Positions 51,211-59,234 of a DNA stretch of 64,000 bases are shown piece after piece (within the stretch, counting starts at the first letter, position 1; each line of letters opens with the position of its first letter). A program made the position numbers and the translations under genes. The DNA lies in NCBI RefSeq assembly GCF_054482525.1, contig NZ_CM137006.1; one strand, given 5' to 3'. The notes beneath the pieces were generated by a model. The model saw only the letters and a list, made by a program, of their open reading frames with translations, was not told where the DNA came from and made no database searches.

Positions 51211-51292
51211 CAACCAAACGACTCGGGGTGCCCTTCTGCGTGAAGGCTGAGAAATACCCGTATCACCTGATCTGGATAATGCCAGCGTAGGG
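51211..51292 (+). repeat. attL: left copy of the 82-bp direct repeat (thiM riboswitch aptamer segment)
   Basis: Identical to 59101-59182. Confidence 0.8.
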
Positions 51293-51375
51293 GGCCAAAA
51301 TAGTCTTGAAAATTATGTGGTTGTATCTCTTTTTGACCATAAATCATGCTGTTAAGGTACAAAAAGGGGTCGTTT

Positions 51376-52683
51376 ATGAGGTCAAGAACTCTCCCATACA
51401 CATTTCAGCGAAACGGTAATTACTATCTACAAATCCGGCTTTCGGATGGTCGGATATACAAAAAATCACTTTTTACTGACAGTTATCGCGAAGCATCGGC
51501 GTTGATGATTGGCCTTACTCCGCACATTCCTTTCGTTAAATCACTCGCTACTCCGTTGCCGCAATTTAATAAGTTTGTTTCAAACTTGATCGCTTCGTCA
51601 CGTAACGTAATGATTCCGTTGCCACTCCCTCAGCAATTGAACAATATTTCTAAAGAAGTTTTGCAGCTTCAACCACCAGCCAAACCGGAAAAGGTACTAA
51701 CACTTGCTGATGCGTGGGCTATGTACAAGGAGGAAAGAGGTCGAAATTGGACAAAATCGATCTCAATAGCAAATGAGCGTTATATGGAGGTATTGCTTGT
51801 TGTCTTGGGAAAAGAAACAGACGTAACGGCAATCACCAAACAAGATATTAAGCGAGTAATGGAAACTGTCGAAAACTTACCAAAGCGTGTAGTGCAACCG
51901 TATAGGTCAATGACTATTCAGCAACTAATCGAATGTGATGATGTGCTGCCAGAGGATTTAGTTGGTGCTGAGGCTGTACATAAGCACCTTAAAATCTACA
52001 AATCGTTATTCAAAACATTTCTGACTGAAAACAAAGATATTCTATCTAAGTCTCCGACTGATGGAATAGTAGCGGCACCATCCAAAGCTAGGTTTGGTGC
52101 ATACAGTGCAGCAGAAATGAAAAAATTTGTAGGATGGGCACTAAAGCAGCCTGATGGATGGCAGAAGTGGATCACTTTGTTGTTGGCGTACACAGGAGCC
52201 AGAAGAGGTGAGATTGCTAAACTGGAGAAGTCGCAGATCAAATTTGATGAAGATAGCCAGCGGCACTATCTTCTGATCGCGGAAAGAAGGCTGGGTAAAA
52301 CTGAGAATGCTACAAGACAGGTAGTGATTCATCCCAAACTGATTGAGTGGGGGTTTCTGGATTTTGTTAACCGCCAATGGAAAGAGAAAATCTTTTCGGA
52401 AGTCTCAGGTCGAAATATGTCAAAGATAGGTAAAGTTCTTTCAGATGTTCGTGATCAGCTTGATATTCCTTATCTTGATGATTATGGGCAGCGGCGCTTG
52501 GTGCATAGTTTCCGGCATACTATGATTTCTACTTGTTTAGCTGGTTGGGTGAGTAATTTGGCGCATCTGCAACAGGTGGTAGGTCATGAAAAGAGTGGAG
52601 TAGGGATTACCCAGCGTTATCTGCACACATTCCCACTTTCCACCGTTTGTTATGTGATCGATGGTCTTTGTTGGGAGACTTAG
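51376..52683 (+). CDS. int: tyrosine site-specific integrase
   Basis: ATG at 51376 preceded by SD aaaagggg; C-terminal catalytic block HSFRHTMISTCLAGW...GHEKSGVGITQRYLH (R, H-x-x-R, Y). Confidence 0.85.
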   Translation: MRSRTLPYTFQRNGNYYLQIRLSDGRIYKKSLFTDSYREASALMIGLTPHIPFVKSLATPLPQFNKFVSNLIASSRNVMIPLPLPQQLNNISKEVLQLQPPAKPEKVLTLADAWAMYKEERGRNWTKSISIANERYMEVLLVVLGKETDVTAITKQDIKRVMETVENLPKRVVQPYRSMTIQQLIECDDVLPEDLVGAEAVHKHLKIYKSLFKTFLTENKDILSKSPTDGIVAAPSKARFGAYSAAEMKKFVGWALKQPDGWQKWITLLLAYTGARRGEIAKLEKSQIKFDEDSQRHYLLIAERRLGKTENATRQVVIHPKLIEWGFLDFVNRQWKEKIFSEVSGRNMSKIGKVLSDVRDQLDIPYLDDYGQRRLVHSFRHTMISTCLAGWVSNLAHLQQVVGHEKSGVGITQRYLHTFPLSTVCYVIDGLCWET

Positions 52684-52811: not shown

Positions 52812-53537
52812 ATGGTTAAAAATTTAGGCAAAAAATACAAGTATGGCGATCAACCGATAAGAGCTATTACCATACAGATAATTGCTAATCAGTTTGGTGG
52901 GGCTGCAACGGCTAAGCAGGTAGATGATTATCTTAGAAAGCTATTTCCATCTTATAAAGATAATACTTGGCTCAATTTAATTGCTAATACAGTTAATTGT
53001 AAGCGGAGCTACTGGAGTTTCAACAAAACTGCCCGACGAACTGATGATGTAACTCATCGGCATCATAAGTATGACCGATTGTTCAAGCGTGGAAATATTT
53101 TTGAAATCTATCAACCATCTGTGCACGGTATTTGGGAATTATACCAGGATTTAGAAGGGATGTGGCGTTATCGTCAAGTAAAATCGGTTTTCGAAGAAGC
53201 TGTTGAGACGGCTGCAAAATTATCTTCAGTGGAACGAAAGCAAATTTTAGCGACAGAAAGTAAAATCCCGGAACTAATCGAAGTAACAACACGAGTTTAT
53301 AAACGAAGCCCATATGTAGTTGCTGAAGTTCTTTTGAGAGCAAATGGAAAATGTCAATATTGTAAGCGAGATGCTCCTTTTCTAAAGGAAGATGGTACTC
53401 CATTTCTAGAAGTTCATCATATTGAGTGGCTTTCAAAGGGGGGGGAGGACTCTGTGGAAAATGCTATTGCATTATGTCCTAATTGCCATAGACAAGCCCA
53501 TTATGGCGATCTGACATTACTACCTGTTAATAAATAG
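52812..53537 (+). CDS. McrA-like HNH endonuclease (candidate type IV / modification-dependent restriction or defense nuclease)
   Basis: C-terminal CQYCKRDAPF...LEVHHIEWLSKGGEDSVENAIALCPNCHRQAHY closely resembles the recalled McrA HNH region; N-terminal about 190 aa unrecognised. Confidence 0.65.
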   Translation: MVKNLGKKYKYGDQPIRAITIQIIANQFGGAATAKQVDDYLRKLFPSYKDNTWLNLIANTVNCKRSYWSFNKTARRTDDVTHRHHKYDRLFKRGNIFEIYQPSVHGIWELYQDLEGMWRYRQVKSVFEEAVETAAKLSSVERKQILATESKIPELIEVTTRVYKRSPYVVAEVLLRANGKCQYCKRDAPFLKEDGTPFLEVHHIEWLSKGGEDSVENAIALCPNCHRQAHYGDLTLLPVNK

Positions 53538-53614: not shown

Positions 53615-53962
53615 TCATACTTCAGAACACATACTCAATGTGTAAACAGCCATCTCCCCATCGGGATTAGAAGGGCGTAATACAAATATCGGTATACTGC
53701 CATTGTCAATGTATGTGGCTGCAACCCCTCCGTCAGGTGTAGCATACATCTTTGCGATGCTTTTTTGACCTACAAAATCAAGTCTCCAAGTTTTACCGCC
53801 AAGATTTATGGTCATTTTTTTATCTTGTATATCAAAAGTTGAATCTACAGAAACTTTCTGACTTCCCGAGTCAATATGACCTTCCTGTATTGCTTTACAG
53901 GAAAAGGTTGTGGCGTGGCCCATCACTGGAATTAACAAAGCGGCAAATACTAGTTTTTTCAT
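53615..53962 (-). CDS. hypothetical secreted protein
   Basis: Start placed at MKKLVFAALLIPVMGHA (signal peptide); divergent from the XRE-family gene. Confidence 0.45.
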   Translation of the reverse strand: MKKLVFAALLIPVMGHATTFSCKAIQEGHIDSGSQKVSVDSTFDIQDKKMTINLGGKTWRLDFVGQKSIAKMYATPDGGVAATYIDNGSIPIFVLRPSNPDGEMAVYTLSMCSEV

Positions 53963-54072
53963 TTGTCTCCCTTGGTGTGTCAAATGGATGGTGATGCTAA
54001 TAATACATGATTGATTCAAAATGTCACGATTAGTGCGTGGTTAATTGGTGCGTCAAATTGCATCTTTGTGCC

Positions 54073-54537
54073 ATGCGAAAGAATCTGAGATACCTTTTTG
54101 GACAACGAGTAAAAGAGTTCCGTATAGCTATTGGCTTAAGCCAAGAGGCCTTTGCAGATCGGTGTGGTTTTGCACGTAGTTATATGAGTCGAATTGAGCG
54201 TGGTTGCTCTAATGCATCTCTTGATGCAATTGAGGTTCTGGCTGACGCTTTGCGTATTGAGCCTTGGCAGTTACTGGCTTCTGATTCAAGGAAACCTGAT
54301 GATCAGGAGGTACTTGTTCCTTATGCTGCAGATGGGTCGTGTTTTCATCCAGGATTGGCAAGTACTCGCGATGGTTCGTTTAGAGTAGGGGAAAAATCAG
54401 CCCAGAAACGTTTCAGTTCGTTCAATGAAGCTCTCGAATACCTTCGTGGAATGGAAACCGCGAAGTGGCGTAGGCCTAATGCTAGTGGTAATTGGGGAAT
54501 TGTATCTGCGGTTAAATGGGATCGACTGAATCAATAA
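54073..54537 (+). CDS. XRE-family helix-turn-helix transcriptional regulator with C-terminal extension
   Basis: N-terminal HTH (LRYLFGQRVKEFRIAIGLSQEAFADRCGFARSYMSRIERG); start could also be 54037. Confidence 0.6.
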   Translation: MRKNLRYLFGQRVKEFRIAIGLSQEAFADRCGFARSYMSRIERGCSNASLDAIEVLADALRIEPWQLLASDSRKPDDQEVLVPYAADGSCFHPGLASTRDGSFRVGEKSAQKRFSSFNEALEYLRGMETAKWRRPNASGNWGIVSAVKWDRLNQ

Positions 54538-55255: not shown

Positions 55256-55741
55256 CTTCTTTTTTCTTCTGTATTGATTTGTGTGTAGTGATTATTGAAC
55301 GTGTTGATTAGGTGTGTAAAGTACTTTTTTCACTACGAAATTCGAAGTTTTTTAGTGTGGTGATTTAGCCTGCCTTATCACTACACTTCTTGCATGAGAA
55401 TCATGTAGTTACATTTTGGTAAAATTAGCAAGCTATTAAATTGTGTGTTTATTTTGAAAAAATAATTTTTGTTGCATTAAAGAAAACTTGTTCGACAAAT
55501 AATAGGTTGATTTTTGATCAATAATTTCTGATAGTGCTCTGTAAGCCGCATTACACAAGGCGCAGCGAAAGTGATGTAAAAGTGAAGAAAGCTAACATTG
55601 CACTTTTAAACTACTTTTCATTGAATTTTTTAGTATGGAATTACACAGGAATAAGTTAGGGATATTCTATGATTTACACAGGGAATATAGGGGGATTATG
55701 GTATTACACAGAGTGAGTGCTATGTGATGATTGGTAGTAAC

Positions 55742-55850
55742 GGTAGGTCACTGTGAACTAGGGGGGTAGGTCACTGTGAACTAGGGGGGTAGGTCACTGT
55801 GAGCTAGGGGGTAGGTCACTGTGAACTAGGGGGTAGGTCACTGTGAACTA
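55742..55850 (+). repeat. iteron array (5 direct repeats of about 22-24 bp), candidate replication origin
   Basis: ggtaggtcactgtgaactaggggg repeated five times head-to-tail, flanked by AT-rich DNA and further ttacacag / gtgtaatt motifs. Confidence 0.7.
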
Positions 55851-57106
55851 CAATAAGACTATAATAAGACTATTAATAAAACTATATTAGATTATTAATT
55901 AGATCATAATAATAATATTCTTTATATCTATATATATATGATCTTTTGCCTTCCGGCGTTAGCTTCACTCTCTGGCAAGCAGCCTTACTCCGCTACCTTT
56001 CGGGCTACGTTGGCTGGCCCGTTCCGCTCACACCGAAAGCAAAGCGTTACTTTCTTCGTGTAACTTCGTTGGCGGTAACGCCCACGAAGGAATACTATTG
56101 CGCTGTGCGCAGTAAGAGTAATCACCTAACCAATCATCTGATTGCTTACGTGTTAACTCTCTCTAACTCTTAATTACCCTCCTACATTTAATAACTCTCG
56201 TTATTCTCTGTAGTTGTGTAATTACTCGAAGAGAGAGCGGCTAAAGCTCAATTACACTCTGCTTTCCTCGTGTAATTTCACTAAGCCTCAATACAATTTC
56301 ACTTCCTACATTCTGTAGTCGTGTAATTGTTTTCGGTGGAAAAGCCAGAGGCGACACCGAAAGAGAATTCTGATCTTATTAATCTTATCTATCTTAGTTA
56401 TCTTACTTACTTTATCTACTTTATTATTAATAATAGCTTTATAAGCTCTCTGTGTAGCTCTCTGACGCAAGAAACAGAGTTCAGGAAGGGAATCACCTTA
56501 GAAAAGTGTTCTTTGCGTCATAATGTGTTTTATGAAGGATTCAGAGGTGTTTCATAACAGAGATGTATAGAGGATACTTTAGGTAATTAAAAATAAGGGG
56601 TCTAAATGCTTCTCTAACAGCATTAAGCAGGGTAGAGAATGGAAACCGCTTTGCCTACATATATAAACTCACTACAGGGCTTTACAGAGCGTTTTATAAA
56701 GTGACTCTCTGTTTTATATCTACCATCACCTTTTCATATACCTAACAAATACAAAATAAGCCCCTTAAATAAGCCTCTGGCGAGCTAAACAGCCATTACA
56801 TAAGAGAATGTATTGCTTTTATCAAAACCTCGTTAGAACGCGTTTTAGAGCGTTTTAGCGGATAATGAAGAATAGCACTACACAGGAGAGCACGAATTGC
56901 TAAGAAAAAATGTAACTACATGAAAAAGATCAGATTTTTTGTGAAAAGGTATTGACAAACGTCTCTTTCTGTGCAATAATAGGTATTAGAGGGACAGGAA
57001 TAGATTCTTATCCTCTAAATAATTAAACCAATGCACCGCACTTTGAAGCCCAAGGCTTGTAAGGTGTGTTTTTTCTTTTAACCAAATAGAATAAGGAGGC
57101 TAATTA

Positions 57107-57536: not shown

Positions 57537-58226
57537 ATGATTAATCAACTAACTTTTACAAAACACTATGACACGTTTGATAATGTATCAAAGATTTATT
57601 CTGATAAATTCCCTCAAGGAAAAGATTTAGATCTATTACATATTGTGCTTTATTTTCGATTCCTTAGTTATCAGGAAAACAACCTTAATTGTTATGAAAG
57701 TCACGAAACATTAGCTAAGATTTTTAAGTCTTCAGCGTCAACAATTAAACGTAAGATAAACGATCTTAAAGAGATGGGATTATTAGAAACATCCCCACAT
57801 CCTGATCCGTATATTTCATCTTTGATTTACAATGCTCTCCCTCTCACAGATGCACATATTACTCCCCCAGGAGAATCATCACTCTCTGATCTTTCTGAGG
57901 CAGAAGAAGCACAGGAACAACCTAAAGGCCATAAACAGCCTTCTTTTGATGTTCTTGATGATTGGGATACGCCTTTACCCTGGGAGACGGAAGAAACACC
58001 TGTTTCATCAAGTGAAAAAGTAGCTAATGATAATGAGGAGGATGTGTTAGAGAATTTTGCCTCTCTTATCATCCAGGAGAAACACACAAGAACAGGAGGA
58101 GCATCATTTATTGAGTTTGCAAATTCACTAGCTTGTAGATACGGGCTAAAACGACCAAATGGTATTGAGGCATATTTTTCTAAGAATTACCCAAATATAT
58201 ACGATGACTTTGATATTCCATTTTAA
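57537..58226 (+). CDS. putative winged-helix DNA-binding / replication-initiator-like protein
   Basis: 229-aa ORF with SD aaggag; N-terminal HTH-like segment and acidic C-terminus; lies downstream of the iteron array. Confidence 0.4.
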   Translation: MINQLTFTKHYDTFDNVSKIYSDKFPQGKDLDLLHIVLYFRFLSYQENNLNCYESHETLAKIFKSSASTIKRKINDLKEMGLLETSPHPDPYISSLIYNALPLTDAHITPPGESSLSDLSEAEEAQEQPKGHKQPSFDVLDDWDTPLPWETEETPVSSSEKVANDNEEDVLENFASLIIQEKHTRTGGASFIEFANSLACRYGLKRPNGIEAYFSKNYPNIYDDFDIPF

Positions 58227-59100: not shown

Positions 59101-59234
59101 CAACCAAACGACTCGGGGTGCCCTTCTGCGTGAAGGCTGAGAAATACCCGTATCACCTGATCTGGATAATGCCAGCGTAGGGAAGTCACGGACCACCAGG
59201 TCATTGCTTCTTCACGTTATGGCAGGAGCAAACT
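59101..59234 (+). promoter_or_regulatory. thiM TPP riboswitch (thi-box aptamer plus expression platform)
   Basis: Sequence cgactcggggtgcccttctgcgtgaaggctgagaaatacccgtatcacctgatctggataatgccagcgtagggaagtc... matches the E. coli thiM riboswitch from memory; ends at the thiM start codon; the first 82 nt double as attR. Confidence 0.85.

Follow-up and report, generated by a model that had tools for sequence, protein, structure and literature searches.

An Escherichia coli island-borne HNH endonuclease of the McrA type with a predicted extended winged helix of the DUF7669 class

We analysed the protein WP_000240373.1, which is encoded on a 64,000-nucleotide stretch of Escherichia coli DNA (contig NZ_CM137006.1, assembly GCF_054482525.1), referred to here as the window. 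RefSeq names this protein "HNH endonuclease" in E. coli strain 789. Its open reading frame (ORF) occupies positions 52812..53537 on the plus strand, starts with ATG and encodes 241 amino acids, giving a product of 28 kDa with an isoelectric point (pI) of 9.2. The C-terminal part was homologous to the nuclease domain of EcoKMcrA, and the N-terminal part was predicted to be a winged helix unrelated to the reader domain of that enzyme. The reading that we favour, at slightly better than even confidence, is that WP_000240373.1 is a stand-alone type IV-like defence nuclease made of a single polypeptide and built like EcoKMcrA. From this architecture and from the company that the N-terminal domain keeps in other proteins, we infer anti-phage activity and dependence on DNA modification.

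The nuclease half was clear. The initial annotation had placed HNH and zinc-binding motifs at the C-terminus and had likened this part to McrA, and both claims held. The motifs were C181-x2-C184, LEVHH at 199-203, N217, C222-P-N-C225-H226-R227 and H230-Y231. C181, C184, C222 and C225 were assigned as zinc ligands, and H203, N217 and H226 (plus H230) as catalytic residues. Among 22 orthologues, C181, C222 and C225 were invariant and C184 was nearly so. The Pfam HNH family (PF01844) matched residues 181-230 with an E-value of 1.2e-12. When the Protein Data Bank (PDB) was searched with the sequence, the best solved relative was EcoKMcrA (6GHC, E 5.5e-23), with residues 141-232 aligned to residues 176-268 of McrA. 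In this alignment the two CxxC pairs, the HH motif, the Asn residue and the C-terminal His were all conserved, and identity over the aligned stretch was about 55-60%, as counted from the printed alignment. The PADLOC type IV model mREase_IV matched the McrA-like stretch with an E-value of 1.3e-23, in agreement with the Pfam and 6GHC matches. A PDB search with the family profile gave EcoKMcrA at E 1.3e-31 and also matched ScoMcrA and TagI. In addition, H203, N217 and H226/H230 aligned with the Pfam model and with EcoKMcrA, as expected of a beta-beta-alpha-metal nuclease. These comparisons showed that the C-terminal 90-100 residues are a McrA-type HNH domain with an active site and a Cys4 zinc site that are complete as judged by homology. 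The helical region homologous to EcoKMcrA began near residue 141, within the linker. The McrA-homologous region was thus about 90 residues long (141-232) and not about 50 as first proposed, and the part without a family match came to about 125-140 residues and not about 190.

Structure prediction of the N-terminal part, which the initial annotation had called for, gave a confident winged helix. AlphaFold2 was run on an alignment of 71 sequences. The predicted local distance difference test (pLDDT) score was 93.1 over the whole protein and 91.8 when the N-terminal domain was modelled by itself. The model contained a compact domain at residues 7-125, followed by two linker helices (126-148) and the HNH domain. 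Its winged-helix core consisted of a helix at 16-27, a strand at 31-33, helices at 34-44 and 52-58, and a wing formed by strands 90-93 and 96-99. A 30-residue loop lay between helix 52-58 and the wing, and an extra hairpin was formed by strands 108-112 and 118-122. The loop region at residues 61-95 had a pI of 10.6 with ten lysine or arginine residues, and the domain as a whole had a pI of 9.9. Mean pairwise identity among the 22 enterobacterial orthologues was 80% for the loop (61-89), 80% for the HNH core, 62% for the winged-helix core and 54% for the linker, which was the least conserved folded region. V61, N62, R65, R75, D88, L90, Y100, H105, G106 and E109 were invariant or nearly invariant across all architectures. 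We take these results to suggest a functional contact surface made up of the loop and the hairpin next to it. In the model, the N-terminal 125 residues form an extended winged helix that is basic, and relatives and fold place it in the DUF7669 class. We regard this predicted domain as a probable DNA binder because the model was confident, the pI was basic and the loop was as conserved as the active site.

Direct searches with the domain gave no known family. In Pfam, the N-terminal domain was without a family; the best match other than HNH was Forkhead with an E-value of 0.29, and there was no DUF7669 match at E ≤ 10. PDB sequence searches with the single protein and with the profile matched the HNH half only and returned no solved winged-helix reader, and in neither search did the N-terminal domain align with residues 1-143 of 6GHC. 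A relationship to HARE-HTH (PF05066) had been suspected from the motif pattern, and it had no Pfam support in the query or its relatives. When 50,697 phage records were searched with tblastn, the C-terminal half alone was matched, and Foldseek returned nothing at E ≤ 1e-3 from the viral structure predictions in BFVD. A viral origin of the N-terminal domain was therefore rejected, since phage genomes and viral structure predictions were without it.

The domain was then recognised through its relatives. A phmmer scan with residues 1-158 against 1.84 billion cluster representatives, at a cut-off of E ≤ 1e-3, matched 60 proteins. The matched unit was about 115 residues long and was found at the N-terminus, in the middle or at the C-terminus of proteins of 115-770 residues, sometimes twice in tandem. 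Pfam DUF7669 (PF24706) was present in 25 of the 43 relatives scanned, with a best E-value of 2.2e-18, over the first 70 or so residues of the unit. The fusion partners among these 43 proteins were HNH_2 (21), HNH (7), NucS_C (3), AAA_5 of the McrB type (2) and Resolvase (1), and several of the HNH_2 fusions additionally carried an N-terminal DUF3427-like domain. The structural search agreed with this. Foldseek against AFDB50 gave 47 matches at E ≤ 1e-3 with template modelling (TM) scores of 0.6-0.9. The fusions were with HNH, DUF91/NucS, DUF1016, RecB-like, GIY-YIG, DUF262 and DUF3427 domains and with proteins named "5-methylcytosine-specific restriction protein B". Proteins annotated as "DUF7669 domain-containing" matched the model at E about 1e-7 with TM scores of about 0.65-0.75. 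The initial description of the N-terminal domain as unrecognised was therefore right in that it was unrelated to the NEco domain of McrA, but the domain belonged to a catalogued, uncharacterised class.

The strongest evidence for the role of this class came from the two McrB-type fusions (P0145 at locus L002 and P0179 at L003). In both, the domain stood in the N-terminal reader position of McrB, and the gene that followed was McrC (PF10117). One of the two adjoined a cluster of SNF2-helicase and methylase genes. Because the domain replaces the reader in these fusions with McrC next door, it is most simply read as a DNA-targeting module of restriction-type systems. Two metagenomic proteins (P0143 and P0150) carried two tandem DUF7669-class domains and no recognisable nuclease. 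Matches of the N-terminal domain to the giant repeat proteins P0128, P0129 and P0172 covered short repeated stretches. They looked like low-complexity or partial-repeat matches and were set aside.

We compared WP_000240373.1 with known modification-dependent nucleases. EcoKMcrA, from the e14 prophage of K-12, uses its HNH domain (residues 147-276) for dimerisation, the DNA sites on its two reader domains are separate, and its NEco domain is organised around a six-stranded beta-sheet (PMC6182155). Both proteins have an N-terminal reader, a helical linker and an HNH domain at the C-terminus within fewer than 300 residues. Their C-terminal 90 residues are homologous with identical zinc and catalytic residues, and both are borne on mobile elements without a methyltransferase partner. 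However, the N-terminal domain of WP_000240373.1 is a predicted helix-rich winged helix, whereas NEco is a beta-sheet domain. WP_000240373.1 is thus not a strict member of the McrA family, of which the NEco reader is the defining part. The Y5mCGR specificity of McrA is not transferable to it because the N-terminal domains are unrelated. ScoMcrA (5ZMM) and TagI (an SRA-HNH protein, 6GHS) have homologous HNH domains (E 1.6e-8 with the single sequence and 4e-4 by profile, respectively) and follow the same logic of a reader plus HNH. Their readers are SBD and SRA domains (PUA-like) for phosphorothioate or 5-methylcytosine, and WP_000240373.1 has none of that kind.

The haloarchaeal enzymes that combine a winged helix with HNH read Gm6ATC, and toxicity in Dam+ E. 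coli was seen for many of those tested (Helbrecht 2024, PMC11037411). They resemble WP_000240373.1 in having a winged-helix reader plus HNH, a size of 224-283 residues and no adjacent methyltransferase, and their PUA-winged helix-HNH plan is mirrored by relatives with DUF3427-like, DUF7669-class and HNH_2 domains. In contrast, they are mostly haloarchaeal, whereas WP_000240373.1 is native to E. coli and shows no such conflict with its host. Its modelled winged helix also differs in the 30-residue insertion and the extra hairpin. DpnI/HhiV4I-like readers share the generic winged-helix fold, but the profile search gave no sequence match to any solved winged-helix reader. With McrBC systems that carry alternative readers, the resemblance is the same domain class in the reader position of McrB-like GTPases with McrC as the following gene. 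WP_000240373.1 differs in having no NTPase or McrC partner, and cleavage would be performed by its own HNH domain. As for Pfam DUF7669, 25 of 43 N-domain relatives matched and the fold superposed, but the query and its enterobacterial orthologues did not reach the model, which covers roughly the first 70 residues of a conserved unit of about 115. A preprint on END nucleases (PMC12191111) describes a different sensor, iEndoIII.

The features of the gene and its island are collected in Table 1.

Table 1. Positions in the window of the nuclease gene, its predicted domains and the neighbouring island features
Feature	Position	Strand	Evidence
Whole gene: extended winged-helix (DUF7669-class) domain plus McrA-type HNH nuclease	52812..53537	+	ORF; RefSeq coding sequence; AlphaFold2 mean pLDDT 93.1
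N-terminal domain, residues 7-125, predicted DNA-targeting/sensor module, pI 9.9	52830..53186	+	AlphaFold2 winged-helix core
Insertion, residues 61-89 (VNCKRSYWSFNKTARRTDDVTHRHHKYD), between helix 3 and wing, predicted contact surface	52992..53078	+	Conserved columns V61, N62, R65, R75, D88
Linker helices, residues 126-166	53187..53309	+	AlphaFold2 secondary structure; 6GHC residues 176-200 aligned
HNH beta-beta-alpha-metal nuclease core, residues 167-232	53310..53507	+	Pfam PF01844; profile search
Tyrosine integrase, first island gene	51346..52683	+	phrog_1 integrase, E 7.3e-27; RefSeq; 82% identical to sister-island integrase
Left 82-nt direct repeat (att core), coinciding with the 5' part of the thiamine pyrophosphate (TPP) riboswitch aptamer	51211..51292		100% identity; Rfam RF00059 at 51214-51309, 61.3 bits
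Right 82-nt direct repeat (att core), lying in the native TPP riboswitch of thiM	59101..59182		Rfam RF00059 at 59104-59200, 71.2 bits

The gene order in the window was yehB-yehA-rcnB-rcnA-rcnR, a low-GC stretch and thiM-thiD. The low-GC stretch had a GC content of 34-47%, compared with about 51-55% in the flanks, and formed an island of 7.9 kb between perfect 82-nt direct repeats. The sequences flanking the repeats diverged directly after the right att core. No tRNA gene was present within the window, and the integration target was the thiM TPP riboswitch and not a tRNA gene. Since the att core is the 5' part of the aptamer, integration duplicated the aptamer. The left copy kept the native upstream region, and the start codon of the integrase is now about 40-70 nt beyond it. 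The right copy, in front of thiM, has island DNA upstream. The nuclease gene started 128 bp past the tyrosine integrase gene (51346..52683), and the intergenic gaps on its two sides were 128 bp and 77 bp. At 53615-54537, between the nuclease and a serine recombinase, were two divergent cargo genes. One encoded a 134-residue protein with an apparent signal peptide (phrog_35183), of which the sister island described below has a 63%-identical copy. The other encoded a 166-residue helix-turn-helix protein with an uncharacterised C-terminal half. Five tandem iteron-like repeats of 22-23 nt (GGGGGTAGGTCACTGTGAACTA) lay at 55739-55855 in a gene-poor stretch of 1.8 kb. A 229-residue ORF at 57537-58226 had a weak match to phage families for replication initiation (phrog_270, E 1.9e-9). 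Once excised, the island may replicate in the manner of a satellite or integrative mobilisable element.

A sister island occupied the rcnR/thiM site and other sites. Its order was integrase, an 86-residue ORF, the HNH gene, variable genes including an AIPR abortive-infection protein, and a resolvase. Identity between the two islands was 82% for the integrase, 78% for the HNH nuclease, 63% for the signal-peptide protein and 46% for the resolvase. The nuclease thus appears, from these sequence comparisons, to be a long-standing companion of the integrase, with the truly variable cargo downstream of it. The initial annotation had seen the gene as island cargo after the integrase. Its place in an att-bounded island directly after the integrase was borne out, but it was not recently acquired variable cargo, as integrase and HNH diverged together. 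In the sister islands (L004-L008), at about 8.7-12.2 kb in each locus, four to five small unannotated ORFs and the 575-residue AIPR protein lay between HNH and resolvase, and some copies carried insertions of the insertion sequence (IS) IS1. This segment looks like the variable defence-cargo slot of the island family.

Orthologues were also found away from these islands. In Klebsiella, an orthologue with 61% identity was placed between a SRAP (YedK-like) gene and umuDC, with a reverse transcriptase or an AAA_15 ATPase in the vicinity. A block consisting of SRAP, HNH, a 296-residue ORF, a 209-residue ORF, umuC and umuD recurred (L009-L013) at several chromosomal sites. It was flanked by the reverse transcriptase or by a resolvase with the AAA_15 ATPase, and it looks like a mobile SOS/defence cassette. 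A Citrobacter orthologue (68%) was a lone gene by IS remnants, and one in Serratia rubidaea (72%) was a lone gene amid housekeeping genes. On an IncX5 KPC conjugative plasmid, the orthologue (82%) adjoined a recombinase gene; on a 4.7-kb Pectobacterium plasmid, it was one of five genes (68%). Because orthologues occur at lone chromosomal loci and on plasmids, the nuclease works without the island, and the idea of a pure island backbone gene was weakened. No methyltransferase was called adjacent to the gene in the window island, the sister island, the Klebsiella SRAP/umuDC/retron island, the Serratia and Citrobacter loci or the two plasmids, so the earlier description of the gene as stand-alone was sustained. 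Among 5426 complete E. coli genomes, 99 (1.8%) carried the nuclease gene, 68 with the window allele and 31 with an allele of about 76% identity, and many other Enterobacterales also carry it. In strain 24AR0376 (NZ_CP195347.1, H1/H41), the gene was split by IS1. Two further genomes (H50 and H51) had alleles 1-2 nt shorter that were annotated as hypothetical or split. These alleles represent occasional gene inactivation.

By analogy with EcoKMcrA, the favoured type IV-like nuclease would dimerise through the HNH/linker region and form one central cleavage channel. The two N-terminal domains would dock independently on DNA that bears the feature they read, with the HNH pair nicking or cutting nearby. 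The metal dependence is probably of the Mn2+/Co2+ type. The recognised feature would most likely be a modification or other property that host DNA lacks, for example a base modification of a phage or a foreign plasmid. E. coli is Dam+. Since the gene resides in Dam+ Dcm+ hosts, the target can be neither Gm6ATC nor Cm5CWGG, and a Gm6ATC-reading enzyme of the winged helix-HNH kind was ruled out by residence of the gene in 99 complete genomes of this Dam+ species. A foreign DNA mark is the probable target because there is no partner methyltransferase and residence in Dam+ Dcm+ Enterobacterales is stable. Found on islands, on plasmids and at chromosomal loci, the gene would act as a portable type IV-like defence gene from which its mobile element would also profit. 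We also entertain, more tentatively and at rather less than even confidence, the broader proposal that the DUF7669-class winged helix is a new reader family for a DNA mark that is neither Dam nor Dcm methylation, plugged into nearly every type IV nuclease chassis. Candidates for the mark would include hypermodified bases of phages, N4-methylcytosine, 7-deazaguanine and modifications of the backbone. The chassis could include McrA-type HNH, HNH_2, NucS-like, GIY-YIG, DUF262/GmrS-like and McrBC enzymes, with the E. coli protein as the most tractable representative.

Several points weigh against a defence nuclease that reads a modification. The query had no Pfam DUF7669 match, and its membership in the class came through intermediate sequences and the fold only. 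The models of PADLOC, NCBIfam and PHROGs covered the HNH half only, and none covered the N-terminal domain. In P0152, the domain was fused to the catalytic domain of a serine recombinase, in the place where the DNA-binding helix-turn-helix normally sits. This fits plain sequence-specific binding as well as it fits modification sensing, as winged helices are generic DNA binders. In the literature, we found nothing on DUF7669 or WP_000240373 and no experiment on this protein or any DUF7669 domain. The protein might also be a nuclease of unmodified DNA that is harmless through low expression or an unseen inhibitor. In addition, the co-divergence of integrase and nuclease in two island lineages could mean that the nuclease serves the element and not host defence.

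A nuclease in the service of its mobile element would recognise a specific sequence or structure with its winged helix and nick it. Its role might be interference with a helper phage or with a competing element, or else support for replication or maintenance of the island or plasmid. We consider this unlikely, all these roles taken together. The two genes stay adjacent and diverge together in the two island lineages (82% and 78%), the island with its iteron-like repeats and Rep-like gene probably replicates after excision, plasmid homologues adjoin resolvase or Rep genes, and the relative fused to a recombinase suggests site recognition. However, the orthologues with 68-72% identity stand alone in the chromosome and have no integrase, Rep or other element genes around them, so the nuclease must work there without the island. 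The commonest partners of the domain are restriction-type nucleases and McrBC, and no island sequence was identified as a target. Equally improbable to us is a nuclease that does not depend on modification at all, which would be an effector in abortive infection, a toxin effector or an orphan type II-like enzyme. Here the N-terminal domain would give general DNA affinity or sense a phage protein, with the nuclease kept restrained until infection. Many defence systems have HNH effectors, PADLOC gave weak matches to ZorE and other effector HNH models, and an AIPR abortive-infection gene is close by in the sister island. In vitro, EcoKMcrA itself shows no strict dependence on methylation (PMC6182155). 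Against this, no conserved partner, antitoxin or regulator gene was found across the contexts examined. The domain replaces the DNA reader of McrB in McrBC operons, and the most conserved surface of the N-terminal domain is strongly basic, as expected for DNA contact.

The Klebsiella orthologue, directly after the SRAP (YedK-like) gene and near umuDC, raised the idea of a nuclease for DNA repair or damage processing whose winged helix recognises lesions. We give this very little credence. SRAP and umuDC are one context of several, the reverse transcriptase and AAA_15 ATPase that stand there with them are typical of defence islands, and presence in 1.8% of E. coli genomes fits accessory defence better. 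A homing endonuclease was rejected. The gene is a free-standing ORF in an att-bounded island with no intron, intein or disrupted gene, and the PHROG HNH families matched the catalytic core only. The profile searches proposed with the initial annotation thus gave an HNH match and, for the N-terminal domain, no characterised non-defence family.

Part of this was already known, as DUF7669 is catalogued and the protein is generically annotated. New here are the link between the two, the extent of the module (about 115 residues) and the evidence for a reader role in restriction. Modification-dependent nucleases add a layer to anti-phage immunity and also serve in the mapping of DNA modifications. 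To our knowledge, each new reader domain so far has brought a new specificity, as with SRA, EVE, NEco, the DpnI-type winged helix and SBD. If the recognised feature of WP_000240373.1 is an ordinary sequence motif, then it would be a routine accessory nuclease. The E. coli "HNH endonuclease" gene is now tied to a widespread modular class of predicted readers that is reused by McrBC-like systems and several single-chain nuclease families. WP_000240373.1 is a small protein of 28 kDa from E. coli itself, with homology to the well-studied catalytic domain of McrA, and therefore offers an easy entry point to recognition by DUF7669.
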